A stretch of DNA of 63,304 nucleotides, counting the filler. It is 6 parts of 6 records of this genome, joined end to end, with 100 filler letters (N's around TTAATTAATTAA, not from the genome) between each part and the next. Parts side by side here need not be neighbours in the genome. Positions count along the whole stretch, not along the records: positions 58,123 to 63,304 come from SRR2962707_1000; 5 more parts are not named here. One strand, given 5' to 3'. The notes below the pieces were generated by a model. That model ran no database searches. It saw only the letters and a list, made by a program, of their open reading frames with translations, and was not told where the DNA came from. Made by a program: the position numbers and the translations under genes. The stretch's first letter is position 1. The number at the start of each line of letters is the position of its first letter. Positions 16,995 to 63,304 of the stretch are shown in pieces.

Positions 16995-19900
16995 TCAAAG
17001 AAACAGCTCAAGGTACGTGCGGCGGAAGCTGTTCGAGCCTTCATCTTCAAGGCGCGGGTAGCAACACGTGAGCGCGTCAGCGGCATACATGTACATGTTG
17101 TTGTAAATTTTCCAATAGACTTCGCGCACACGCCGTGCGGGATGGAACAGCCCTTGCAAAGCGTACAACATGATCGTAGGGCATCCCAGCGATACCCTGA
17201 AGGCTTCCACCGCCTCGAAAACAGCGCGAATCACATGTGGTGACTTCTCGAAGATGTTTGGCCACACAAAGTTCAACAAGTGTACAAGTGCGGGTTCGCA
17301 ATTGAGTCCCGCCACGCCAAGGGCAAGGTGCTTCACCGTCGTACATGCAGTTTGTCGATGCACCAGGTCACGATCCATCAGTGCATCCTCGAGAAGTGGG
17401 GCCACTGCATTCAAGTAATCCTTGGCCATCTCGCCAATGTATTCAAACATGAAACTCAAAGCCTTGAGGACACCGTTCTGAACATTCAGCTCCGGCACGC
17501 GGTATTCATTGATGAGAGCTGGGAGAACAGTGAACGGTGAGCATGTCTCCGCAACAATGGCAATGGCTACTGTTGTGCAAACACGATTCTGCCGCTCCTG
17601 CACCTTGAGGTTGTTCAGCAGTGTGTGAAGCACGTCTTGTGGTCCAATAGCCTTAGCGATGTAACCGAAGGTGTTGACTGTGGCGCGCCGGATAGCCTTC
17701 TTGTGCGCTTTCAATAACTCGAGAAGCTCAAAGCACAAACGCATCCATTCACGGGGGCTCACGTGCTCGGCGCCTCGGTCGGCGATGCGGCCAATGAGGT
17801 CAATGCAATTTTCCTGCACTTTTTCATGCCGATTCTTCAAGATGGGCGTAAGCCGCGGCAACAGTTCTTTGATGGGCGGGTGCATGCTGTTCATGCCCAC
17901 GACATTGACAATGGCTTTCAAGGCACCAAGAATGGAACCCAAAACTTCGGGATACTCTTCATTGAGGTACTCATACAGCACCTGACCGAGATGGTCAACG
18001 TGGTTCCCCTCCCCACACGACATCATGACCACAACCACGCGGGAAATCAAGTCAGCCGCTTGCATTCGAACGTTGGCTTCTTTGTTGTGCAGCCTCCACT
18101 TGATGGTGGCAGTAATCTGGTTGCAATAAGGCTTGCAACGCTTGCCGAGCGCGTTGACCACGGTGCCGAAACCGTTCAGCATCACCGAGGAGTCATCGGC
18201 AGTTTGTTCTTGGAAGGCGGTCAGCAGGCCATCCATAAGCTGCTCCTCCAAACGAGGATCAACATCGCCTGCACCAAGGTTCTGACAAACCTTCTCAATA
18301 GTCTCCATGACCATGCGGCGGTACGGCTCACTCTCGTCCTTAAGGTCGTCCACAATTCGGCCCACGATGGGGACAAACCCCACCTTATTGGCCAGTTCCA
18401 CTGTGGTCTCGACCAGCTGCCTGTAGTTGCGGCGGTCGAGAGCATTGCGCCGAACCCAGAACTGTCGGAAGAACTCTGGCAGGACTTCATCGATCACATA
18501 CTGTGCCTCAACACCATCAGTGCCAACACACTGTTTCACTACTTTGAGCACGATCTTCTTCATCTCCTCGTCAGGGGAGGCGAACTCGCGAATCAGGATC
18601 AGCATCACCTCTTTTGTGTAATGACTTGCATACACAGAATCCATAAGGGGAATGATGAACCCGATTGCCTTCAAGAAGGCCGCCAGACCCTTGCCACGAT
18701 GCTGGCGGATACCCTTCCACAGAGGGCGAAGGACCGAGTCGAATGACTCAATGCCGTATGGATGAGCCGCTTCAGCCATGGCTGCAAGCGCCAATGCAGT
18801 AATCGTCCGCACCTTTTGCTGCTCATCTGTCAGTCCGTGAGCGACGATGTCCACCAAGTGCTTCAAGTGCGGAAGAATCGCACACCCCATGAGAATGGCG
18901 ATCTGCTGCACAATTTTAATGCCTGTGTGGCGAGCCTGCCACGACACGCGCGACTGGGTCACTGCCTTGAGGAATGGGAGCAATTCGGGAATGCCAAGAG
19001 CTGACGCAACCACTGCAAATGCGCGCGCAGTGGTGTTGCGCACATACTCATCCACGTTGTCAATGTCGGGACGCATCGTGGCAATCATTGCAGCCAGACC
19101 AGCTGCCTTGGCAAGATTGGAAATGATCTCGCGACCCTCCACACGTGCGTAGTAATCCTCGTCGATTAGCAGAGGCTCAATGACGACTAAGATCTTGTGC
19201 ACATACGGTCGCACGAGGTCGTCAAGCTTGTACAGCACGCGGTCAATGACTTTCACCAAGAGGTGGCGCTCCTGGTCTTCGATTGTTGGGGCCATGAGCA
19301 GCGGCAGGATCTGGTTGAAGAGTGGTCCTGCCCCGAAAAGGCGAGCCTTGTCGGTGATTTGGCGAAGCGCAGCCTTGCGTTGAGCGGGAGTTCCGTTCTT
19401 GATTTTGAGCAATAGTTTCATGATCTTGCGCTCCTTTGCCTCTTCAGGCGTGATTTCATCTTCATTGACCTCTTCGAGCAAAGCAGAGAAATATTGGTAG
19501 TCCTCTTCCTTGATAAAAGGCAGTGCTCCCCCGTCTGGACCCACGTTGTTCAGCGGCACACCGTAGGAGTCTCGTCCAGGTGTGGCTCCCATTGCGAACC
19601 CGGGCGTACCAGCCATGGGTGTGGGAGTGGCAAGTAGACGACGTGAAGGCGTCATGACCGGTTCATAGCCCGGTGGTGGGTCAAGGATCTTGTAGCCCTC
19701 TTTGGGGAACATGGCATCCAAGTCCTCGTCAGTCAGTGGGCGGTTTCGCGCATCCATTTCCCCCTGCCAACGCATTTGGTTTGCCATCTCTGGCGTCATG
19801 GCAACACCACTTGCAGCCGGCGTCGCGCCCATCATACCCATGGGTGTTCCCTGCGGCGTCGCTCCAACTCCGGCGCCACCGACAGGTGTTGCGCCAATGG

Positions 19901-21041
19901 CCGACGACCCCGAGGCACCAGCGACCGGGGTTTCGTCCCAACGGGAGCGACCCTTTTTGGCACCAGCATCCCCCGTCACACGCTGGGGCGTCTCATCCCA
20001 GCGCGAGCGTGGTGCCGCAGCGCTGCCCTCTCGCTGGGGCGTCTCGTCCCAGCGCGATCGGCCGCCGCTCGCAGCACCAGCGGCTGCTCCAGGGGTCGTG
20101 TCGAAGCGACCCGGGGTCGTGTCAAAGCGACCTGGCGTGGCGTCAAAGCGTCCAGGCGTGGCATCAAAGCGTCCAGGCGTGGCCTCGAAGCGACCTGGGG
20201 TGGTCTCGAAACGTCCCGGGGTGGCCTCGAAGCGTCCCGGGGTGGCCTCGAAGCGTCCCGGAGTGGCCTCGAACCGTCCGGGTGTGGCCTCGAAGCGCCC
20301 AGGAGTTGCCTCGAAGCGTCCCGGCGTTGCCTCGAAGCGTCCTGGGGTGGTCTCGAAGCGCCCTGGAGTGACCTCGAAACGCCCTGGAGTGACCTCGAAG
20401 CGACCGGATGACACGACGTAGCTCCTCCCACTGGCACTGCTGCTGCTGCTGCTGCTGCCGCTGGTAGTAGCATCCTCGGGCTTGGACTTTTTCGTGTCCT
20501 GCGAATCGCCAAAACCAGGGCGTCGCTTGCGAGCCTCGGTGGCTTCTTCCACCTTCTTCTGAATTTGTTGCTCCACGTCCTTTCGTTCTTGCTGCAGGCG
20601 CTGCGCCATCATGATGTCCTTGTAGGAGTTCGCCCCTGCTTTGTTGCCGGAGAAGGCGTCCCCGCGCTCTGGGGAAATCATGCGGTTCATGCGTTGCTGC
20701 TTGTACGAGTCCTCCCGGTCGGACACACGGGTGTTCACGAGCCCAGATCCCTTCATCTCGCGCGTCTGGTCGTCAAAGGGGTCGCCTGACTCTCTCTCCG
20801 CGTCCGGAACCATAGTGGAAGGATGCGACCCTCCCCGGCGGAAGCCGCCACCACTGCTGCTGCTGCCGTTGTCGTCGTCTCCCTGGAGCGCGGCCGCCTC
20901 CTCTTCCTCCGTTGGCAACTCCGTGACTTCAGCCTTGGACTTCCCGTAGATGTGGTCGTCGAACGAGCCAGGGGCTGCACCAAACGCCGCCCGGTCTTTC
21001 TGAAGGCTCTTGATCGTCGTGTCGGCATCGTCCTTCGACAT
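16995..21041 (-). CDS. SF3B1: Splicing factor 3B subunit 1 (SF3b155), intronless
   Basis: RWDETP ULMs, p14-binding [15 protein letters not shown], and HEAT repeats ([49 protein letters not shown]). Confidence 0.98.
20091..20405 (-). repeat. Coding tandem repeat, 15 x 21 bp encoding GRF[E/D][A/T/V]TP inside SF3B1
   Basis: Counted directly from the translation; synonymous codons differ between units. Confidence 0.95.
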
Positions 21042-22125: not shown

Positions 22126-25100
22126 ATGCCGATCTCTTCATTCATTGCTTCGAGGCCCAACCTCGTGTCGCCAGCACCACGGGTACCACCCCATGACAAC
22201 GCCAGCAACGAAGGCATGTTCATCACCGGCTACTCGCTCCGTGCTCCATCGAGCAACAATCCTCAGGAGTTCTTTGACAATCTGATCAGCAAGACTGACA
22301 TGGTAACTCCCACCCGCCGTTACCCAGGTTTGAACACGAAGTGTGGACCACGGCAGGGCGATACTTTGTGCAATGGTCTCGCATTAATTTTTGTTTGTGC
22401 GTTGCTGCGTGGTTTTTTTTATTGTGTGTAGAGGGGTACCACGGCCTTCCACCTCGTACAGGAACTCTCCCGGATATTTCATCCTTTGATCACGAATTTT
22501 TCAAGCTCAATCGCAAGCAGACGGACAAAATGGAACCACTTTTGCGCCTTCTACTGGAGACTACCCAGGAAGCCCTCATGGATGCGAAGCTACCAATTGC
22601 CGAGCTGCGTGGCTCCAACACCGGAGTGTGAGTAGAACATTGCATCTTTTGCCTGCAGCTTCACCTCTGCGCGCTTGTTGTTCAGGGTGTTCATTGTGAG
22701 TGTCGTGCCAAAATCTTTCGCCTTACAGGTACGTCGGCAACATGTACACAGACTTTTGTCGCAGGGCTGCACGAGACGAGTCGCTTTCCGGCTACGAAGC
22801 AGTGAATGGTGCTCAAAACATGCTCGCCAACCGGCTGTCTTTTCACTACGACTTTCAAGGTCCAAGCATGGTCATGGACACGGCCTGCTCGTCTTCATTT
22901 GTGGCTTTGCACCAAGCTCGACAAGACATTCTCGCTGGCATCGTGGACCGTGCCATCGTTGCCGGAACTTCCATTACGTCGGACCCCAATATCAACATGA
23001 CTCTCAAGGCGTACACAATGCTCTCTCCAACTGGGACGTGTCACTCTTTCGATGACAACGCAGACGGCTATTGTCGCTCCGAGGGTATTTTTGTGATCGT
23101 TCTCGAATCGCAACGGATTTGCCGCGCAGGCTACGCCACTGTGTTGGCGAGTAGCGTGAACTCCGATGGTTTTACCGAGAAGGGTATCACCTTTCCCTCA
23201 GGTGTAGCCCAAACACGCAATATGCGCAATGCCCTTCAAAGGGCGAACATTTCCCCAGACTCTATCAGCTATATTGAGGCCCATGGAACCGGCACCACCG
23301 CCGGCGACAACCAAGAATTGCAAGGCATGTCGGCACTCTTTTACGCGGATGGAGACGAGAACAAGTTCCGGAATATTCCCATCGGCTCTGTGAAATCTTG
23401 CATGGGGCATGCTGAGGGTGCTTCTGGAATGGCATCGCTTGTGAAGTGCCTGTTGATGATGGAACATCGCTGTTTCCTGCCCAACCAACACTTCGTCAGC
23501 ACAAGCCACAAAGCGCTGCTCGACGGTCGTTTTTCTGTGGTGACTGATGCGAAACCTTGGACCCCAGGCAACGTGTGCATCAGCAACTACGGGTTTGGCG
23601 GCACGAATGCTTTTGCAGTCCTCGGGCCAGGCAACGTGCGCTTTCAAACGCCTGAAAGTGAGGTCGAGGGCAAAGGTGACCAAGAGCAAGCAAACGACGG
23701 AGGTGGACTGCTATTTGGTAATGCCCCAGCCTCGACCTCGTCGGATGTGCCCTTGTCCAATACACCGACTGCTGAATGGCTTCACGAGCAAGTGATGCTG
23801 GGCAATGATGCGGCGTACCGCTACCGCAATGGCCGTCGCGTTACTTCGACCAGCAAAATTGCTTTCGTGTATGGTGGACAGGGTAGCCAGTGGATTGGCA
23901 TGGGAAAGCAGCTGTACGAAAGCTCGCGTGCATTTCGCAACACAATTGACCGTCTCGGCGGGTATCTGAAGGAAATGGACCCCACATTTGACCTTGGAGA
24001 TCTTTTCCAGCGCGGTTCCGAGTGGATGCGCAAGGAGCTTACCGTGATTGGAGTCACTGCGTACGTTTAGTACTCTCTTTGTCTGATGCTGATTCAATCT
24101 TGCACTTTTGCACTGCGTCTGATAATGGGAGCACTTGTTAGGTACCAAATTGCTTCCACCAACATCCTCCGACACGAGCTCGGTATTGTGCCAGACTTTG
24201 CCATTGGGCATTCGCTGGGCGAAACCGCCGCCGCATACGCTCATGGTATGCAAACAGAGCGTGAAACTATTTGCGTCGCGTGGGTGCGAGGCCGCCTCAG
24301 TGGCAAGCTGGCCAGCGGCGGTCGATTTCTACTGCGAACGACAGTTTCCCACAACGACCTGAAGCTCGTCGGAACGAGTGACGGGAACAATTATTACGAC
24401 CTGGGTGAGCGCAGTGAGGTCGAAGCATCGGAAATGTGTGACGATACTGCTGACGATCAAGTATTTGACCTTCATGGTTCCATGGCAGCGGTAGGACTCG
24501 AGGCAAGTGTGGTGCAAGAGGCCATTGATCGGCTTGGGCTGCGCCAAACTGTTATTGCGTGCTACAACAGCCCTAAGGGACAGACAGTATCAGGATCTGC
24601 CATTGAGGTTCGTGCCGTGCCTTTACGGTTATGTCTTAGCTTCGCTCACTCTAAACTGGCCATTGCACGGCTCTCACGCACATTTTTGATCTATTCGTGC
24701 ACGTAGGTGGCGCTGCTTAAAACTGATCTGATTGAAAATCACGCGGATCTATTCTGGCGAGATGTCAATACGGATGGTGTCGCATATCACGCACCTCACC
24801 TGCGAGCTCACTATGATTCTCTTGTGACGGAACTTGAGGGCATTTTGGGCAAAGAAGCTCGTCCATTCGATGCACGCCTCCTTTCAACGTCAATGCCAGA
24901 GACCGGGGCTAACGGGATTGGACTGTCAACCTGTATGGACGCAAGCTACCACGCACGCAACATCACTGGGCCAGTCCACTTTACTCGCGCTGTGGAAGCC
25001 TTGCCACCGCAAACGCTTGTCGTTGAAGTTGGGTCAAGCCAAAGTCTTTTGGGCCAAGTGAAGCGAACCCGCCGAGACGTTGGAATCTTGGGCCTGGTTA

Positions 25101-28100
25101 AGGTTCGCAGCCCCGAAACTGAAGCTTTCTACCTTGATCCCATGCAGACTCGACAGGCCCTCTGGGAAGCCGGATTTGTGAACGCGTTCCGCAACATTGC
25201 TGAGGAGCACGGTCGCGTCGAAAAGGGAACCAGGCTGTCACTGGCCCAACGCTACCCAAATCTGTGGAACCACTCGGTCCAGCACCGAATCTTTACGTGG
25301 AAGGACTTTGAAACGCCGGAGCGCAATGGATTGTCTGAGGGGTCTCTGGCAGCTGCAAGTTCAAGCAACGCTGAGTCCGCCATGTCAGTTTCTGGAGTGG
25401 GCTTGCTGGAACGTGGTGCCATTGTCAGCTACGACATTGCCGGCGACGATTCTTTCTTGTTGGATCACCAAATTAGTGGCCGCAAGCTGTTTCCTGCCAC
25501 GGGGCACGTTTGGACCATCTGGAAGGCGCTTGGTTTGAACAGCACGACATTCGCTGAGTCTGGACTGGAGCTTCGGGACTTTGAGATCCTGCAAGCTGTT
25601 GTACTCGATCCAATCGGATGTCCTATTCTGGAATTTCGTGTGCAAGTGTGCGAGAATGTGGCATCAGTCCACTTTGGTGGAATGACCGTTGCCCGAGCTT
25701 GTTTTGAAGTGCTTCCCGCAGCCACCAGTGCAAACGTGGTCGCAGAAGGCGATGCCTTGCCAAATGGACAGCCTGCTCTGGATGCTGCGGAAATGTACAA
25801 CCAGTTTCGGCGCTACGGCTATGAGTATGGATCAAACTTTCAGCTTATGCAGCGGCGAACTCTGACACACAACTCCGACAACGACAAAGCGCCAACAGCG
25901 GCGGCAGTTCTGAATCCAGCATGCCATCTGATCCCTTTCTTGGACAACCTGCTTCAGGTTTCGTTTATTGAAGATGTGAGTGCTTTGGTTTTGCCCACTC
26001 GCATTAAGCAACTGCGTCTATCTGCGCTGGCCGCAACGGAGTGGGAAAACCCCGTCCAGCTTTGTATCGAGCGTGACACACGAACAGTTACGACCGCTGG
26101 TTGTATCCTGCGTGGTCTGGAGCTGAGCATTGCCGCCCCGCGCCCTCGACATGATCTAATTCATGAGGCTGCGACCTTTTTCGAGCTTGGCTGGGGTCCA
26201 CACAATGTCCTGCAGGACAAACATCATTCGGAGGTTCTCGCCGCGGCAGGAAACTTGGTTGCAACGCGAGTCCTTGCTCATTTGGAAGGTAGCCCTCACC
26301 TCATGGATGAGCGACCATGGCTCGCAAAGCTTGCAGCAAAAGCCCACAGTCACTTGCGCGCTGCAGAGACCACTGACACTCCTGCGTTTCCCATGACTGA
26401 AGTGCAGCTGCGAACGTGGATCACATACCGCTTGGTGGACGATGTCACGCAGCCAGGATCAACGCTTGAGGCCTTCCTGGCGAATCCACTCTTTGCGCTA
26501 TCAACACACCCGGAGCACGAAGAATTTTACACGAGCAACCCTCTCGCATGCTGCAATCGCAGCACGCTGGCAAAGATAAGTGGCCTGGTGCGGAACGAGG
26601 TCGGAGGCCACGGCCACGTCCGCATTCTAGAAGTAGGAGCTGGAGCTTGTGGATTTGCGTCGCGAATCAAGCCGCTGCTGCGAGAGGCAATTGGAACCTA
26701 CATCTGCAGCGATTCGCGTGGTGTGCACATGCCGCAAGATCTTGTCGCTGACTCGCGCTTTTCTACCATGCACCATGACCTGGACTGCCCACTGCCAGAC
26801 TTTGTCAAGCCGCTGCCAACAAAGTCATCGGTTTCAACCGGCAACCAGCAGGAAAAGTTGCGCACGCAAGATGTGATTGTGGCGTCACACGCCCTGTTCC
26901 TTGCCCGCGATGTGCGCGCATCATTGCGCCATCTTGCTCGTAAGCTACGTGTCGGAGGATTGATGATCATCGAGGAGTTCACTGGAGACCACGGTGTCTT
27001 GATGTGGGGTGCCGACAAAACGTTTGTCTGGGACCGTGCAGTCGATGGACCTGGAAAGTCTCGCCGTGACGTGCTGTGGATGAGTCCAGAGGAATGGCGT
27101 CAAGCTGTACTGGACGTGACGGAACTGGATCTTATTTTTGCCCAAGAGCGCCCTGGCAATCTCACGATGGTTCTGCGTCGCGCAAGCAGCTCATTTGTCA
27201 AGCTCGGTATGCAGCAACACGTAAAAGTTGGCCCAAAATTTGAAGCCAAGTCGAACCTCCATGGTGCAGGCACTGCAATTGGTGACGCTTCGAGTCCAAT
27301 TCGCACCCCTGTGCGACGGTCGTCTCCGGAAAAAGGCAACAACCAAGTCAGCACGTCAGCCGACATTAGCGCATCAGGCGATGGGATGTTTGCAGCTGAT
27401 ATCATTGATGCGTGGGACCAAGTTGATTTGTCCAAGCCGCAAGTGCTGGTTGGTGATGGCTCGCACGCCTTCCGCCGCTGCCTCGAGCAGGAGGACGATG
27501 TTACCAACCTGCAGACCCTCTGTTACTCGGACAGCAAAACTGGTTCAGTTCACGACACAGTGTTTGCTCAGTGCGAAATCGCGGAACTGTTGACGTCGGA
27601 GGTGGGACAACTCCGCTATCTGACACTGCTCGATGGTCGTGTTGGCACGACAGTGTCTGTGCCCCTCGATTGCACGCTTCCACTGTCTGAGAGCAGCTTG
27701 AGTGACGATGCAACCCACCGCATGCCGAAAAACTTTTCGTTGGCGATTGCTAAAGCTGGCGATCTTAACTCCGTTCACTGGAGCGTCAAGACTGCCAATG
27801 AAAGCGACGCTCACAACGGCAGCCAAGTGAAGGTCGAGTTTGCGGCTTTAAACGCCTTAGATGTGGACGTGGTCTTTGGGCGACGCCGCGTGGCCGAGTA
27901 TGAACTTGGAGTGGAATTTTCTGGCACCACAGCCCCAGGCACAGCACAGTCCAACTCTGTGTTTGGCATCAGTCGTGGCTGCATTTCGGGGGTGCTGGCA
28001 AAGCCACCGTTGTTGCAGTGGGCTGTCCCAACTGGAATGGGAGTAGCCAAAGCAGCAACACTTCCGGTCGCCTATCTGACCGCAGCTTACAGTCTGTTGG

Positions 28101-29839
28101 TGCAGAGCGACTTGAAGGCTGGTGATTCGATTTTGATTCACGATGCTGTGCGAACGAGCGTTGGACGCGCGGCTCTTCACTTGGCTAAACAGCGTGGCTT
28201 GAACATTTTGGCAACGTTTTCCAGCCAGTGGGAACACCAAGACCTCCTCCAACAGTATCGCATGGACGCTACTGCCGTCTTCGATGTTGCGACTGGGGAG
28301 GCCTTTCTAGCGTCTGTGATGCAGAAGACCAGCGGACGCGGTGTTGACTGCGTGTTGTGGGGATGTGACAACCACAGCACTGCAAGCCTTCAAGCTTCGC
28401 TGGAGTGTGTCGCGAATTTTGGTCATTTCTGTGACTTGAATTCCTCGGCGAGCTCTGCGAGTAGCGCCAACACCTCAACAATCACCAAGCACTGGGCCCG
28501 CGGGGTGTCGTACCATACTTTTGACCTTTATCAAGCTGCCACGCACAGTTCGAAGATTCGCTCTGAACTGCAGCAACTGATGCAGACGTTGCTTGACAAT
28601 GGAGAGGTTGCTCCGTTGCCACTGGCGATCAATGCTCCTGAGGACGTTGCAGAGGTGATCAAACGTTTGAATACGAAGGAGCCGGAGACTGTATCGCGAA
28701 AACAACTTTTGTTTATGAAGGAATTTCTTCCCCCTCAGAAAGCCCCTGTTCCTCCGTCTGACGAAAAAGATTCTCTTCAACGTCCTGAGGCAAAAATTGC
28801 TGCCGTTCCTCGATACGTCGCACGTGGTGTTCACATCGTGACTGGTGGGCTTGGAGGATTTGGTCTCGAACTTGTCCATTGGCTTTTGTCATGTGGTGCC
28901 TCGCAAGTGATTATTACCTCACGGTCCGGTATTCGGACAGGCTGGCAGAAGTTTCGGTTCGAGGCGCTTTTGTCTAAGTACGGACCCGACGCAGCAGTGA
29001 TTTCGAACCTGGACGTGACAAACGCGGACCAAGCACAGAAGCTTGTGTGCGGCACATCCAGCAATGCCGGTCGCGTGCGTGGGCTCTGGCATTCTGCTGT
29101 GGTTCTTCGCGACGGTTTATTCCAGAAAGCAAATTCCAGCGACTGGGACATCAGCACCAACTCCAAGATTGGGGCTTTGCGTAATCTTCACTCAGCCGCG
29201 GAGTTGCTGCGCTCCAGTTCGGCTGAGCAATTGGACGATTTTGTCGTGTTTTCCTCTGTCACGTCCATGGGTGGCAACTGTGGACAAACAGTTTACGGTT
29301 GGGGAAACAACGCGTGCGAACGTCTGATGGAGCACCGCCGCAGGTTGGGTCTTCCTGGCGTGGCAATTCAATGGGGCGCCATTGAAAGTGCTGGGCTGGC
29401 GACCAATCTTGATGGCGAGGTCATCCACATGGGACGTGGAGTGGAGGTGGCCAAACAAAACATCGACGATAGCCTCGAGAGCCTGCACAAAATTCTCACG
29501 TCGGCTTCAACCAGCAGCACTGTTTCCAGCTATCGCCTTCGCGTTGAGAAGCCGACACGTGAGCTCTCCACTCCTGATGGCGACAGCGGCAACCCAAGCG
29601 ACGCGGTTGACTCCGTCCAAAAGGTGCTCGAGAAGCTGGCAGATATCCTAGGCGGCTCTGCAACGGACTACGATCCATCATTCCCGCTCCAGGAGTACGG
29701 GCTCGATAGCCTAAGCGTTGTGGAGGTCATGAATTGGATCAACCGTCTTGTATCTGTCAAGGTCACCCCGAGCTTTGTCTCGAGGGACACTACCTGCAAC
29801 TCAATCTTCAAGTACATTGACGACAATCGCCTCTCGTGA
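22126..29839 (+). CDS. Type I iterative fatty-acid/polyketide synthase, animal-FASN-like (KS-AT-DH-MT-ER-KR-ACP, no TE); five exons, about 2442 aa
   Basis: Exons 22126-22327, 22432-22627, 22729-24060, 24142-24607 and 24707-29839 join in frame via GT-AG introns. KS DTACSSS/HGTGT/KSCMGH; AT GQGSQW/GHSLG; DH LLDHQISGRKLFPATG; MT ILEVGAG; ER LPVAYLTAAYSL; KR TGGLGGFG...GQTVYGWGN; ACP GLDSL. Confidence 0.9.
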
Positions 29840-56998: not shown

Positions 56999-58021
56999 TC
57001 AATACCGGTAGTGGTCTGCCTTGAACGGGCCCTGCTGTGCAACGCCGATATAGTCGGCCTGCATCTTGGATAGCGTCGTCAGTTTGGCGCCAAGTTTGGC
57101 CAGGTGCAGGCTCGCGACCTTTTCGTCCAGGTGCTTGGGCAGCACATAGACCTTGTTTTCGTAGTCGTCGCCCTTGGTCCACAATTCGATCTGGGCCAGC
57201 GTCTGGTTGGAAAACGACGCGCTCATCACAAACGAAGGGTGCCCGGTCGCGTTGCCGAGGTTCACAAGCCGCCCTTCGGACAAGAGGATCATCTTCTTGT
57301 CGTCGGGGAATTCGACGATATCGACCTGCGGCTTGACGTTGGTCCATTTGAGGTTGCGCAGCGCGGCCACCTGGATCTCGTTGTCGAAGTGCCCGATATT
57401 GCACACGATCGCCATGTTCTTGACCCGGCGCATGTGGTCGATGGTCAGAACGTCCTTGTTGCCGGTCGCGGTCACCACGATATCGGCGCGCTCGATGGCG
57501 TCTTCGAGCGTCACCACCTCATAACCGTCCATCGCCGCCTGCAGCGCGCAGATCGGATCGACTTCGGTCACCAAGACGCGCGCTCCGGCGCCACGCAGGG
57601 ATTCGGCCGAACCCTTGCCAACGTCGCCATACCCGCAAACGATAGCCACTTTGCCGGCCATCATCACGTCGGTGCCCCGGCGGATGGCGTCCACAAGGCT
57701 CTCGCGGCAGCCATACTTGTTGTCGAACTTCGATTTCGTCACGCTGTCGTTGACGTTGATGGCCGGGAAGGGCAGATCGCCCTTTTCCTGCAGCTGGTAG
57801 AGCCGCATCACGCCTGTCGTCGTTTCTTCCGAAACGCCCTGGATCGACGCCCGGCATTTGGAGTAAAAGCCCGGCTCACGATCGAGCCGGCGCTTGATGA
57901 CCTTGAACAGCTCTTCTTCTTCCTCGTTGGAAGGATTGGCCAGAACCGAAGCATCGGTTTCGGCCCGCGAGCCGATCAGCACCAGCATGGTCGCGTCGCC
58001 GCCGTCGTCGAGGATCATGTT
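56999..58021 (-). CDS. ahcY: Adenosylhomocysteinase, 5'-truncated
   Basis: [54 protein letters not shown]-stop. Confidence 0.97.
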
Positions 58022-58022
58022 G

Positions 58023-58122
58023 NNNNNNNNNNNNNNNNNNNNNNNNNNNNNNNNNNNNNNNNNNNNTTAATTAATTAANNNNNNNNNNNNNNNNNNNNNN
58101 NNNNNNNNNNNNNNNNNNNNNN
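58023..58122. other. Artificial contig spacer
   Basis: N-run + TTAATTAATTAA + N-run. Confidence 0.99.
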
Positions 58123-61100
58123 CAAACAAACAAACAAACAAACAAACAAGAAAAAAAAATCGCAGCCATGACCAACGAACTTGACCAGGGTGAACCACAG
58201 TGTATCGGGCGTGCGGGTCATCATTACGAAGCCATTCTGAGCTGAATTGTAAAAACTCTTCCTGGTTGGAGTTGAATTGTGTCACGCACATTGGCCTGAA
58301 GCCATTGCAGTCAGCGCCAACAACTACGTCTCCAGAAAAAGTAAACACCCCGGCCAACGGCCCGATGTAATTCACATCAGCTAATACTGAACCCAGATAT
58401 CTGAGTCAGCAGGTCATGCAATTGTGGAGAGCATTAGCCGCCAATCAAAGCAACCAAAGCGCAAAGGACGGCATCAAAATCCCATGCCTGAGCCCCTTAC
58501 CGCTCGGGATCCAAGCGCTTGTTCACAACATTGGGGATCAGCGTAGCAATCGTTTCAGGCAACGTGCGGGGTTTCACTGGGTGCGCCAACAAAAACCGAA
58601 GGAACACGCTCAGAAGATACCTTCCAAAGAGCAACATTTAACTCTGTAAAAGGAAGAGCTAGCAAAGTTGTACTTAGTCAGTCAACAGGACAATGTCAGC
58701 AAACGAGGCACAACACGCACGAATCACTGAGCGGCACACGCCCTGTTACAGTCTCATCCCACAAGTTGACTGGCGCAGTGGTGCCTTCCGTGCTACGGCT
58801 ATCCAGCCCAAGAAATTTGCGGAACTCTGCGTCATTTGCCATCAGTTGGTACAGTTGCGACAAGTTGTTCATTTCGCCGTTGTTGGAAATGCACATGAGT
58901 GGTTGGATTTTATCCAAGCCTTTTGGAGCGTTTGTGCAAAATCTGTCGTGTACAAGGCCCTGCGATGCACGGAACAGCGGATTTTGAAGGTCTGGAAACG
59001 CCAAAGCCAGGTCGCTTGGCGCCATTAAAGCTTTGTAGATGACATTGCCACCAGGTTCAGCTGAAATTATGCTTGGCTTTTTCTCGCCATCAGGCTTTGA
59101 CAGTGTTTCAAAGTCGGCGCGCGTCTGGAATCGGAGCAGTGCTCGCCCGAAATCAGCGTTGTTCATGGTCTCCGGACGAAGCACAAGAAGTTGTTGGATC
59201 GGCAACTGCTGCGTCATTGCTACGACGCCAAACGCACCGCGATTCATTGGGACACTGCGTTCTGCGGCGACTGTCAACCCTTCGTCAGCTAAACGACGTT
59301 CGAGCCGCTCGCGGTAGATGGTGCTGTACTCTGCAGTCTCCGGTACGAAAGTAGCCACCACGGCAAAGTCATTACCATCGACCGCTGGTGCAGCTTGCTG
59401 CTTTTTTGATTTGTTTGAACCAACTGAGCGTCCAAACGCCTCACGGCCAAAAGCTTGCTCCCAAAATTCTGGATCTACGGTCAGATTGATGCCTGCCCCA
59501 TCAGAGGATTTCGGATCTGAAAATCCGGCACGGTGATTCATCATATTCAGCGAGTCCACAAGGCGCTCCACAACTTGGCGTGAATACCTGATGAAGCACC
59601 AATGGAACATGTCAGCTTAATGTGAGGCATTGTTTTGACACAAAGTGACCCTGGCCGGACGTAACAAAGACGCACCCTGACTTAACAGCAACAAAGTTGA
59701 TCCCACATGCCGCTCGCTCAGCATCTTCGGCCGAAACTGATGAAATCCCTGCGAGCTCACGGATCAGATCAAAGCTTCCAGCCGAAGGTGCGACAAGATC
59801 GTCGCTTCCCTTGCTCTTGGGCCCGACCCCCAGGTCCGTCATGGTGCGTGTAAGGCGGTCCTCGCCGGCGGCCCAGTCCTTCGACAGAAGCTGAATGTGC
59901 GGGTGAGTATCTCCGTGCCACCAATCCACATTCATGTGATCGGTCGGAGGCGCCATTTTCGGCGCTGTTGCTGGATCTATTGCCACGAACGCTTCCCGCA
60001 CAGCGGCTTCGCCTTCCGCGTTTTTGCGGGCGACTCGGAGCAGCGCAGCAGGCAGATGGTTATCTCGCACATTTGCCGCCGCTCGCTCCAGAAGCTCAAA
60101 CAGTCGCGCTGCTTCTGAGTCAGAGACTGGCCGAGCTTCAACACCCGTCAGGTTTTTTGCGTATCGAAACTCGGTCAAATTTTCTTCGTGAAGGGACCTG
60201 CAACCCCGACAAAGAATTAACACACCGCCGACACGAAGTTTTTGGTCAAGCAACAAAGCAAGATTCACGGACCTTGGTAGTACAATGACTCCGCCGCCCA
60301 TACCTCCACCAATGCCAGGGCCCATTGCAGCTGATTCTGGCATTCCCGTAATGTTGAGCTGCCGGTACCCACTCGTATCAAGCCGCTCTCCGAGCGTATT
60401 GTCGTAGTGGGACGGATAACTGCGGTGCAAAACAGCAACCAGTCACAACCAGTCACAGGCAGTGCGTGCAGGTAATCATGACATCATGACAGAACAGCAA
60501 TCAGTTTGAGCGGCAACAACGTACCCGAGCACAAAAAAGTGTCCACCGGTGCGGTAGCAGGAGCTCATGTCGCCTGTTGTTTCAACAAGACAATCCAACT
60601 CGTAGCTACGAATCGCTGCTCGATCGCCCATAGACCTGGCGATGAGAGTACCTGTGCCGGCACCATATCCAGCCTGCATGGACCAAGAACAGTGTATGCC
60701 CAAGGCAAAATCAAAATCGCTTTCTTTCCACAATTGTCGCGACGAAGGCCATCACTCACGAAACACACAATCGTACCTGATCTCCCATCACCTGGGCAAT
60801 GACTGTCCCGCCCGAAAGGGCCTTGCCAGCGCCATGGTTGACGGGACCATCAACCACAATCTCCATTCCTTTGTGAAGACCCATCCCAAACGACAAGCCG
60901 CCAACTCCTGCAACATCAATGCGCAGACCACGTTCTACGACCGCACTCGCAAGCGCGGGGTCTCTTTGCACAGTTCCAGCTAAGAGAGCACCAAAAGTCC
61001 GATGCTTGTTGGATGCATTTGCTTTCAATGACACAGGACCCTCTGCCGGTGTTTTCAGCTGAATCATCATTTCGGCCAAAAGTTTTTGCTCTGCGGTGGT

Positions 61101-63247
61101 GTCGTAGAGATCGTACCTGCATGATGGCAACGGGGTTTAATTCTCAGCCTGGTACCGAATTAATTCAACAATACCCCTGTCGCAATGCAAGGAGATGACT
61201 CACGGAAGTCGGGATTGGGCGTTTTGGGTTAACGATGACGCCCAAATCGGGGGCTTGGGAGCAGCAAGCAACTCCTCGAGACCAGTTTTTAGCGACCGCT
61301 CGGTTTGCACTTCGAGAAGGTCAGTTCGCCCCCGTGCCGAGTGGAAATCTAGCCCGTAGCTACGAAGTGCATCAAGAGTCCAACAAAGGCAATTCAATTT
61401 TGTGACTGAAGACATCGAGCTTGCTAGTGTGGAAACCAATCCACGGGACAAGACAAACAGGGACTGCACGTACAGGTCAAAAATGCGTTGGGTGCGCTTG
61501 GCCAGAAAAGCCAAAAATCGAACAACATTCTCTGGCCGGCCAGGAAAGAGCTCTCGCAAATCCATTCGTTGGGTGGCAATGCCCACTGGACAATCGTCAT
61601 TTTGGCAACTGTCCGCCTGAGCAAAACACGCAAGCCACTCTGAAAAAATGGAGGAGACTAAAGGCAAAGTAACATGCAAGTTGTCGTGGCGAACGGTTCA
61701 GCAATGACGTATTCGCGCACCTTGACACATCCGTTGGCTAACATCAGTGAGGTGCCCATGTTGATGCGATTAGCACCCATAAACACCATCCTTGCAATGT
61801 CTTCAGGAGTTTGAATTCTTCCTGATGCAGCCAGGTCTATCGGCCACAGGCCTTCAGAGATCAACGTATTGCGGACCTGTTCCGTGCAACCGAGCGTCAT
61901 TGGCGCGTGTACAGTCGTTCGCAAACATGAAAACAAGTGCGGCCTTTTGACTTGGACGCACCTCCAAAATGCCGGGTGTTTTGTCTCGCACATAAAAGTG
62001 CTTCGATTCGGCCTTCGCTGCTCCTGTACCGCCAAATCCGGTAACTTCTACGCCAGCTCCAGCTTTGGCAACCACAAGTGAAATGGGCCCAATTCCATTC
62101 CGTGACGCCAGCTTCACCCAGATCTTATTGGCTTGTGGATTGATTTGCCGAAGATCGTGGATGAGTTGAGCAAGGTCCTGCAAGCACAATGCCACAAACT
62201 CGCCTTGAGCCACGCGTGCGGGACGCTTGGTGTCGTCGGTTGCAACACAAGAATTGTAGCTTTAAGGGGCTCCGAGCATACCTCCACCGAGTAGATGTCG
62301 TGGTGGGGTGGGGGGGAGTACAAATCCAGACCAGGCCGAGAACCTCTCACTTTGGCAATGAGATCAGTCACCTTGTTGGCAGGCAAGTGACCCCCATCTC
62401 CAGGCTTTACACCTTGAGCGACTTTGATGTCGATCTCTTCTGCTTCCGTCAGGTACCTTCAATATTCACCCACAAAGTCAACCCACGCCATCTCGAACCG
62501 AGGACATTGTTGGACTCACAACACGCGTGGGCGTGGTCGACATGTGTCCGCAATGCAGCACAAAGAATTCGCATCCGCGTACTTCAAAGGAGATTCTCCC
62601 ATCCAACGGCCGCTGGCCACCTGGACGATCGCAGCTGCGGCCAGGCCTCCTTTGGCGTAGTCATCATCCACAAGTTGGCCGCCCTCGCCAGAATTTGACC
62701 GCGGACCTGGTGCATCTTTTAACGACGTCCCCAGCCGTTCTGCCACGCAGCGCCGCGCAATGTTGAAGCCCAAGTGTTCCACTTGCCAGGCTTCCTTCGA
62801 CATTGACCCAAAGCTCTTGGCTGCACCACCAAGATTCGCGAAAACCTGACAACACGAGCCCCCAAGACCGCCCACCGAGAGGTGAACCACTGGAAGAAGG
62901 CTACCCTGGAACTGCAAAAGACTTCCTCACGTCGGTTAAACACGAGGACGTAGCAAAAACACGAAACACACCTGCAGCTCAGAGTGCGACAGTCCGGCAA
63001 CAATGTCCTTGATCTTGTTGTATCCTTCGCCACCAGGCTCGTAGGCGTGTGGATGCTGATTGATGTACTCCAGCCACTTGAGTTTGAGCGTCGACATGAA
63101 TCTCACGCGGGTTGCGCGAGCGTACGGAAGCTCAGCCGCCCCCACCCCGCCTGTGAGCGAAGGTGGGGCATGCAAACGTTGCCTGGGATGAGCCACCAAC
63201 GCGGAAACGCCGCGCTGTGTGGCCCTTGGGTTCAACAACCGAAGCAT
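58123..63247 (-). CDS. Multi-exon eukaryotic glutamate synthase large-subunit homologue with permuted domain order (synthase/FMN - GXGXG - GATase), 3'-truncated
   Basis: In transcription order: [66 protein letters not shown]-x5-C-x4-C ([19 protein letters not shown]); then [28 protein letters not shown]; then [46 protein letters not shown]. Many GT-AG introns. Confidence 0.88.
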
Positions 63248-63304
63248 GTTCCACGGCTGCTCGTTCACCAAGCCCGCGGAAAAAAAAAAAAAAAAAAAAA
63301 AAAA

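Follow-up and report, generated by a model that had tools for sequence, protein, structure and literature searches.

In glutamate synthase (GOGAT) an ammonia tunnel of 30 angstroms couples the glutamine site to the reducing site, and PMC8097209, from which all cited background below is drawn, gives one domain order (glutaminase, central, synthase, beta-helix) for the NADPH-GOGAT alpha-beta enzyme, the ferredoxin-dependent enzyme (Fd-GOGAT), the NADH-GOGAT fusion and the archaeal open reading frames (ORFs). In GltB of Azospirillum these domains are placed at residues 1-422, 423-780, 781-1202 and 1203-1472, respectively. The eukaryotic NADH-GOGAT is described there as an alpha-beta fusion of ~2100-2200 amino acids (aa) with a pyridine-nucleotide reductase at its C-terminus, and the archaeal-type split GOGAT as a set of domains in separate ORFs, which can be encoded apart and re-ordered (PMC8097209). 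Here we report on the last contig (58123..63304, 5182 bases, record SRR2962707_1000) of a 63,304-nucleotide stretch of DNA, called the window throughout, in which N spacers set the limits of a single partial gene on the minus strand. Very probably this contig carries ~1250 codons, counted from the start, of a nuclear gene with introns that encodes a circularly permuted GOGAT. Compared with Azospirillum GltB the order here is synthase, beta-helix, glutaminase and then central, the central domain being seen in relatives of the gene. In the full-text literature outside subscription journals and supplementary files we found no description of a rotated GOGAT order.

Ten stop-to-stop ORF pieces from the minus strand of the contig were scanned with Pfam. 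Glu_synthase matched five pieces within 62839-61482 (83.5, 40.9, 37.2 and 25.8 bits, with the fifth at 18.0 bits under the cut-off of 20.4), GXGXG matched at 61016-60792 (38.3 bits, cut-off 32.5) and, under that cut-off, at 60673-60518 (27.2 bits), and GATase_2, the amidotransferase, matched at 59586-58840 (100.1 bits, E value 1.6e-28); the junction ORF and the N-terminal piece, two of the ten, gave no Pfam match. These matches bear out the order synthase, GXGXG, amidotransferase that had been claimed in an initial annotation of this DNA. The order of ordinary GltB and Fd-GOGAT (amidotransferase, central, synthase, GXGXG) is not that of the window gene, which does have the barrel binding flavin mononucleotide (FMN) with three 3Fe-4S cysteines and the GXGXG beta-helix of ordinary GltB. 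The 3Fe-4S cysteines and most catalytic motifs, reported earlier as intact, are indeed present in the spliced model, the former as C-x5-C-x4-C at aa 360-371, a spacing which depends on the splice chosen for intron 5, and the amidotransferase motifs as MNHRAG, SDGAGI, NNGEMNN and PLSDS.

The junction between the two halves lies within one stop-free ORF of 276 aa (59612-60442; previously given as 59612-60430), which holds the last beta-helix turn, AFVAIDP and the start of the amidotransferase. Within this ORF the fusion exon, exon 11 (59676..60197), carries the old C-terminal helices, the linker and the amidotransferase start (positions 608-767 of the family profile), with AFVAIDP at aa 743 followed by a linker of ~90 aa. 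The codon of the nucleophile Cys is at 59707-59705 (aa 838 of the model), so that the catalytic residue, which would be expected at or near an N-terminus behind a short propeptide, has 837 residues before it. As the end of the beta-helix and the start of the amidotransferase share one stop-free exon, these domains are not on separate polypeptides as in the archaeal type, where they occupy separate ORFs.

The same exon was found elsewhere. Protein P0271 (194 aa, from a 2962-base Logan contig) is 91% identical to exon 11 with an open frame, its similarity starts and stops at the modelled exon 11 splice sites, and it shares the helices, the linker and the amidotransferase start. Protein P0272 (32% identical) runs uninterrupted across the join of exons 10 and 11, which confirms that join, and then shows the same helix-to-linker layout. 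It is barely credible that the contig instead contains a pair of adjacent genes, be it the 3' part of a GOGAT followed by the 5' part of a second one or a tandem array, or that it is a chimera of the assembly. Both contig ends are repeats, upstream exons are possible as no in-frame stop precedes the ATG, and full-length read support comes only from the same run, all of which would suit such an explanation; however, the halves are not parted by a stop, a single exon holds the conserved blocks with ~90 codons between them, the N-terminus matches where the permuted family begins and not a central domain, and the same junction recurs in P0271, P0272 and ~30 full-length proteins, some on bacterial chromosomes. 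The whole model also gives one colinear match to the permuted-family profile. The claim of one gene, not two, is thus upheld by an unbroken fusion exon and by its recurrence.

An exhaustive protein search with the amidotransferase exon returned 808 proteins at E values up to 0.001, the best 150 of which were listed. The two top matches were short fragments, P0004 (419 aa, 74% identity) and P0005 (61%), and 16 of the best 150 of the 808 matches carry the amidotransferase from residue 728-946 onward in proteins of ~2100 aa. When eight full-length relatives were scanned with Pfam, all eight gave the order Glu_synthase, GXGXG, GATase_2, Glu_syn_central, as expected from the circular permutation of GltB proposed earlier. 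In a region search over the junction of P0012, 23 clusters covered 94-100% of the region, against 24-53% for ordinary GltB. With domain profiles, FMN preceded GATase in 30 of 31 collected members, the remaining one being without an FMN match, and the reverse order (GATase before FMN) was seen in every ordinary GltB that had both domains (37/37). The search for the same architecture that the initial annotation had called for therefore succeeded, with ~30 predicted proteins of ~2100 aa in public collections, where they bear generic names (for example 'glutamate synthase domain-containing protein'). Its statement that it knew of no described GOGAT with this order still stands, as none was found described in the literature covered, although the order is not unique to the window. 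As far as we have seen, the architecture is deposited but undescribed and the window contig is a divergent, intron-bearing eukaryotic member.

The family is rare and uncurated. NCBIfam has no model for it, and three full-length relatives scored 642.7, 706.6 and 641.6 bits, each in two stretches, against the GltB equivalog NF008730, whose cut-off is 1047. Single-protein scans with P0011 and with P0009 gave no match in either genome_contigs or metagenome_contigs, and a scan by way of the universal GOGAT motifs with alignment A1, which was built from 14 relatives, gave ordinary gltB loci only; P0009 was found in glutamate-synthase clusters of the ESM Atlas. The contig ends where the amidotransferase domain ends, and the suggestion that a central domain lies past this end is supported by the full-length relatives, where it follows the amidotransferase in 8/8. 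A re-fusion of archaeal-type split modules, offered earlier as another route to this order, is less likely because the family keeps the central domain. To our knowledge this domain is absent from the archaeal GOGAT set, unlike the permuted relatives.

Separate phylogenies for each domain, also proposed earlier, placed the window gene inside the family in both cases. The tree searches were quick ones under LG+G4, and within the family the trees have no root. For GATase, the family and the window grouped in a clade with a Shimodaira-Hasegawa-like approximate likelihood ratio test (SH-aLRT) support of 100 (34 of 71 rows); for FMN, they did so with a support of 99 (31 of 68 rows). P0047 and P0085, which lack the FMN part and had first been labelled ordinary, fell inside the family clade of the GATase tree. 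The window was sister to P0009 with SH-aLRT values of 97 (GATase) and 98 (FMN). Membership of the family is thus indicated both by each domain separately and by a single match that runs colinearly through synthase, beta-helix, linker and amidotransferase. Family-typical residues are present in the window as NNGEMNN (HNGEINT in ordinary enzymes) and GGTGAA (ordinary GGTGASP), and 82 of the 93 invariant columns of A1 are kept by the window model. Four of the eleven missed columns are misalignments as judged by eye, because PLSDS, GPLAG and NGFRP are present.

The spliced model has 15 exons, 14 introns of 44-126 bases and 1248 codons without a stop. Along the A1 profile the matches of the ORF pieces rise strictly from position 66 to 1109, with the frame switching between pieces. 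All in-frame GT...AG pairs between neighbouring pieces were listed and the joined peptides were scored against the A1 profile, which guided the choice of splice sites. While GT and AG were imposed on the introns, the third-last base was left free, and it was C in 12 of 14 introns (CAG ends); donors were mostly GTRCGY. GC donors from a first splice scan were replaced by GT donors, and a 60-base intron 1 was replaced by a 126-base form with a better family fit. The first version of the model gave a single match to the A1 profile of 776.6 bits (positions 66-1109), and the revised intron 1 extends this match to position 48. As this single match is to a profile of the same domain order, the likeness between window and family is not a matter of chance.

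Exon 1 (62972..63247) starts with an ATG at 63247, and its first 74 aa precede the conserved region (profile match from aa 75). This start is uncertain, as there is no in-frame stop from the contig end to the ATG. The first 50 aa of the model contain 8 Arg and 1 Glu, and the presequence that had been noted at the N-terminus is presequence-like by composition. Intron 1 (62971-62846), the best of the candidates scored, is followed by exon 2 (62583..62845) with the start of the FMN/synthase domain (Glu_synthase at 18.0 bits, under the cut-off). The synthase domain continues through exon 3 (62282..62456; 83.5 bits), exon 4 (61962..62177; GGTGAA, 40.9 bits), exon 5 (61721..61876; 37.2 bits), which ends on the first cluster Cys (aa 360), and exon 6 (61474..61616; 25.8 bits), which holds the second and third (aa 366, 371) and CPVGIATQ. 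Exon 7 (61204..61359) connects the synthase barrel to the beta-helix; intron 7 has an ambiguous donor, with in-frame candidates at 61239, 61233 and 61203, and GTGAGT at 61203 was taken even though the profile score slightly favours 61239. The beta-helix is encoded by exon 8 (60777..61116; first part, 38.3 bits), exon 9 (60525..60673; GXGXG at 27.2 bits, under the cut-off, and family profile 534-586) and exon 10 (60273..60419; last turns). Intron 10 is 60272-60198, and leaving it unspliced lowered the profile score from 776.6 to 753.7 bits. After the fusion exon, exon 12 (58721..59587; GATase_2 at 100.1 bits) holds the main part of the class-II amidotransferase, exon 13 (58621..58643) is a 23-base mini-exon set by frame and GT-AG only and is the least certain part of the model, exon 14 (58501..58576) continues the amidotransferase, and exon 15 (58164..58400; family profile 1068-1109) contains its end (GPLAG, NGFRP) with a frame that stays open into the repeats. 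All exons are on the minus strand.

Two sequencing runs provided close copies of the contig. The Logan assembly of run X1 contains a 5179-base contig which covers 58163-63269 of the window; X1 is probably the source sample, and its contig is therefore not independent support. It is one base short at 62310, in a run of C, and the version in the window keeps a universal motif in frame at this position. The difference may stem from misassembly of the homopolymer or be a true frameshift variant. A second run, X2, which belongs to another study, gave seven small contigs of a close relative. The window and X2 differ at 18 positions, 7 in intron 11, 9 synonymous and 2 nonsynonymous, so that 9/11 exonic differences are synonymous; this includes all three in the linker between AFVAIDP and the Cys and three of the four in exon 14. 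The window gene is under purifying selection. Together with the invariant columns kept, these mostly synonymous differences support the earlier view of a functional enzyme, and the product of the window gene is likely, to judge from its sequence, a working glutamate synthase.

That the gene is a decaying or non-functional copy, either a pseudogene or a recent bacterial insertion that stays open by chance, we consider very improbable. The frameshifting base difference at 62310 in one assembly speaks for it, as do the strong divergence of the protein (identity to any full-length relative of at most 31% in GATase and 46% in FMN) and the fact that spliced expression is deduced from DNA only. However, 1248 codons over 15 exons contain no stop, the invariant columns and the ratio of synonymous exonic differences given above do not fit decay, the 91%-identical exon of P0271 is open too, and 14 introns with a shared consensus speak for a long stay in a eukaryotic genome.

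Class-II amidotransferases rely on an N-terminal Cys and its free amino group. In the window product the chain would run from an Arg-rich, presequence-like N-terminus through an FMN/3Fe-4S barrel, a GXGXG beta-helix and a ~90-residue linker to a class II amidotransferase of the N-terminal nucleophile (Ntn) type, which places the Cys far inside the chain. The residues before it read ERAA/CG in the window, mostly E-K-D-A/CG in the family and E-x-D-A/CG in ordinary GltB (the slash stands directly before the Cys), and the linker before the Cys is variable and of low complexity in the family. An AlphaFold model of relative P0137 (mean predicted local distance difference test, pLDDT, 77.3; predicted template modelling score 0.67) has pLDDT values under 50 at residues 847-882, directly before Cys883, and both flanking domains are confident. 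Because the context of the Cys is like that of ordinary GltB and the variable linker is of low confidence, we propose that cleavage takes place in front of the Cys. This would give one chain with the synthase and beta-helix and another with the amidotransferase, central domain and reductase. Glutamine would be hydrolysed at the Cys, and ammonia would be tunnelled to 2-oxoglutarate at the FMN site, where the imine would be reduced, as is known for GOGAT (PMC8097209).

Alternatively the chain stays uncut, the internal Cys is no Ntn nucleophile, and the amidotransferase has a structural or regulatory role in an enzyme which uses free ammonia or catalyses another reaction. We regard this as unlikely. 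Cleavage is deduced rather than seen, conserved FMN-domain positions are altered in the window and its protein sits on a long branch, which this alternative would accommodate; against it, the window keeps the Cys, the arginine of HR(G/A)G, the NG within NNGE and also the SDS motif, the Cys is invariant in 14/14 and in 30/30 aligned family members, the residues before it resemble those that precede the cleavage site in ordinary GltB, and a family member is the sole GOGAT homologue of a bacterial genome of 1.9 Mb with glutamine synthetase. Cleavage of the chain remains our preferred reading.

The full-length relatives continue for ~600 residues after the central domain. In P0169, residues ~1556-1802 match FprA (1lqt, E 3.9e-23) and adrenodoxin reductase (1cjc, E 4.8e-20). 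Among four relatives scanned, Pyr_redox_2 was above its cut-off in one and a C-terminal Fer2 domain in two; GltD models matched the C-terminal part of the family weakly, at 27-36 bits with cut-offs of 447 and above. By homology, the missing 3' part of the window gene should encode the central domain, an adrenodoxin-reductase/FprA-like reductase with flavin adenine dinucleotide (FAD) and NAD(P)H sites and a 2Fe-2S ferredoxin. Electrons would pass from NAD(P)H to FAD, 2Fe-2S, 3Fe-4S and finally FMN.

Bacterial GltB (1ea0, 2vdc, 6s6s, 7mfm) shares the four domain types, C-x5-C-x4-C, the motifs of the FMN site and the Cys-Gly amidotransferase start, and these structures are the best Protein Data Bank (PDB) sequence matches of P0169 (E 1.4e-170 to 1.1e-140), each in two stretches. 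In Foldseek, the P0137 model had glutamate synthases as all seven top matches, with ~790 aligned columns over the synthase and beta-helix part; this search follows chain order. Unlike bacterial GltB, the permuted family does not have as its electron partner a GltD subunit with two 4Fe-4S clusters. Fd-GOGAT (Synechocystis, 1llw, 1ofd) has in common a single chain, FMN, 3Fe-4S and electrons from a 2Fe-2S ferredoxin, and 1llw is the best PDB match of the window amidotransferase exon (E 7.4e-14); its domains are in the ordinary order and its ferredoxin is free, whereas in the permuted relatives a ferredoxin-like domain and a reductase are fused C-terminally. The eukaryotic NADH-GOGAT is similar in length to the full-length relatives, shares with them the C-terminal reductase fusion and is, like the window gene, eukaryotic, but it has the ordinary order and a GltD-like C-terminus with two 4Fe-4S clusters, where the permuted family has an FprA/adrenodoxin-reductase-like part and a Fer2 end. 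FprA or adrenodoxin reductase and adrenodoxin-type ferredoxin are the domain types found at the C-terminus of the relatives; in their own systems they are separate proteins that serve P450s or Fe-S assembly, and in the relatives they are domains of the GOGAT chain. In archaeal-type split GOGAT the domains are in separate ORFs, and in the window gene they are fused in one frame.

Three family members come from Gammaproteobacteria genomes, two of them metagenome-assembled genomes (MAGs), and most others from metagenome or Logan contigs. P0169 lies between ppsA and purB on the 1.87-Mb chromosome of a Gammaproteobacteria MAG, with asd, truA, ppsA, purB, rpsB, tsf and rseP-like genes among its neighbours; that genome has no other strong Glu_synthase match, and glutamine synthetase is present in it. 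P0159 is in another Gammaproteobacteria MAG (L086). In a sample of 400 Gammaproteobacteria genomes two had a full-length match, with one further genome unscored, and the orders of both matching genomes contain only 2 and 1 species. A gammaproteobacterial genome of 2.6 Mb has a full-length permuted homologue (L085, G209:C1:236407-242538) with one in-frame TGA in 2116 codons, which may reflect an error in sequencing, mark a pseudogene or be recoded. Many members, including the bacterial P0159, begin with 50-110 basic, hydroxyl-rich residues, and as this holds for a bacterial protein the feature alone is no proof of eukaryotic origin. The 90-residue N-terminal extension of P0159 resembles a mitochondrial presequence and would fit a transfer from a eukaryote to an intracellular bacterium. 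The window copy, with its 14 spliceosomal-type introns, is eukaryotic, and we infer that the gene has passed, in one direction or the other, between bacteria and eukaryotes.

Taking these findings together, we tentatively suggest, as a reading that we hold with more doubt than conviction, that the family is a fourth, undescribed GOGAT class: permuted, self-cutting before an internal Cys into two chains, equipped with an NAD(P)H-FAD reductase and a 2Fe-2S ferredoxin of its own (a self-sufficient 'ferredoxin-type' enzyme), and encoded by a gene exchanged between deep-branching small-genome Gammaproteobacteria and protists, where the enzyme would be mitochondrial.

A number of points weigh against the main reading, a gene for a permuted GOGAT, and the gene model behind it. 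The window branch is long (1.24 and 1.4 changes per column), and the pairing with P0009 may be long-branch attraction, of which the tree tool warned. The window has SGRIQTP where the family has SGGIQTG, H334 is replaced by Q, and some conserved glycines are replaced. The missing base at 62310, if right, would break the SPPPHHD exon. The splice sites were picked partly with the family profile, and the 776-bit score thus leans towards the family, although the frames and the ORFs themselves are independent of that profile; splicing and a single transcript are predicted from the DNA. P0004 has its own Met-rich, basic N-terminus ~150 aa before the Cys, from which some relatives may be split rather than fused. 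In P0047, P0085 and P0004 the protein begins 72-153 residues before the Cys with a Met and basic sequence of presequence-like character, and the first two, perhaps with P0004, are possibly split forms, which would fit a two-chain enzyme, or else truncated gene calls. Such split forms would have amidotransferase, central domain, reductase and ferredoxin together on a protein of their own. Cleavage before the Cys is the weakest step of the proposal. The gene is cut by the contig end, and for the window organism the central domain, reductase and ferredoxin, and with them the putative electron path, are extrapolated from the domains of relatives. Import of the eukaryotic copy into mitochondria is suggested by the composition of its N-terminus.

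The window itself consists of six contigs, each of the five joins being a TTAATTAATTAA spacer flanked by two 44-base N runs, and the last contig is set off by the N runs at 58023-58066 and 58079-58122. The GC content of the six contigs ranges from 0.36 to 0.67 and is ~0.5 in the last, which on the gene strand opens (5') with a run of 25 T and closes (3') with TTTG repeats. Contigs 1-5 have long, dense ORFs of prokaryotic type and the last contig looks eukaryotic, which points to a bin of mixed content or to contigs without relation to each other. An adenosylhomocysteinase-like ORF of high GC content (56999-58022, minus strand, 339 aa), assigned by eye from its translation, is truncated by the end of the fifth contig, and very long ORFs are found on the second and third contigs at 24707-29839 (plus strand, 1710 aa) and 16995-21041 (minus strand, 1348 aa).

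A natural family with rotated domains means that the GOGAT fold tolerates new chain ends. With the nucleophile 740-880 residues inside the chain, the unmasking of the Cys, which is poorly understood in ordinary GOGAT, becomes directly testable. The family also points to a different electron supply, by a domain that resembles adrenodoxin reductase, together with a 2Fe-2S domain. As its genes score under the NCBIfam GltB cut-off, they may be missed or misnamed in reconstructions of nitrogen metabolism. A eukaryotic copy with 14 introns beside copies in small-genome Gammaproteobacteria is a candidate for transfer of the gene between domains of life.

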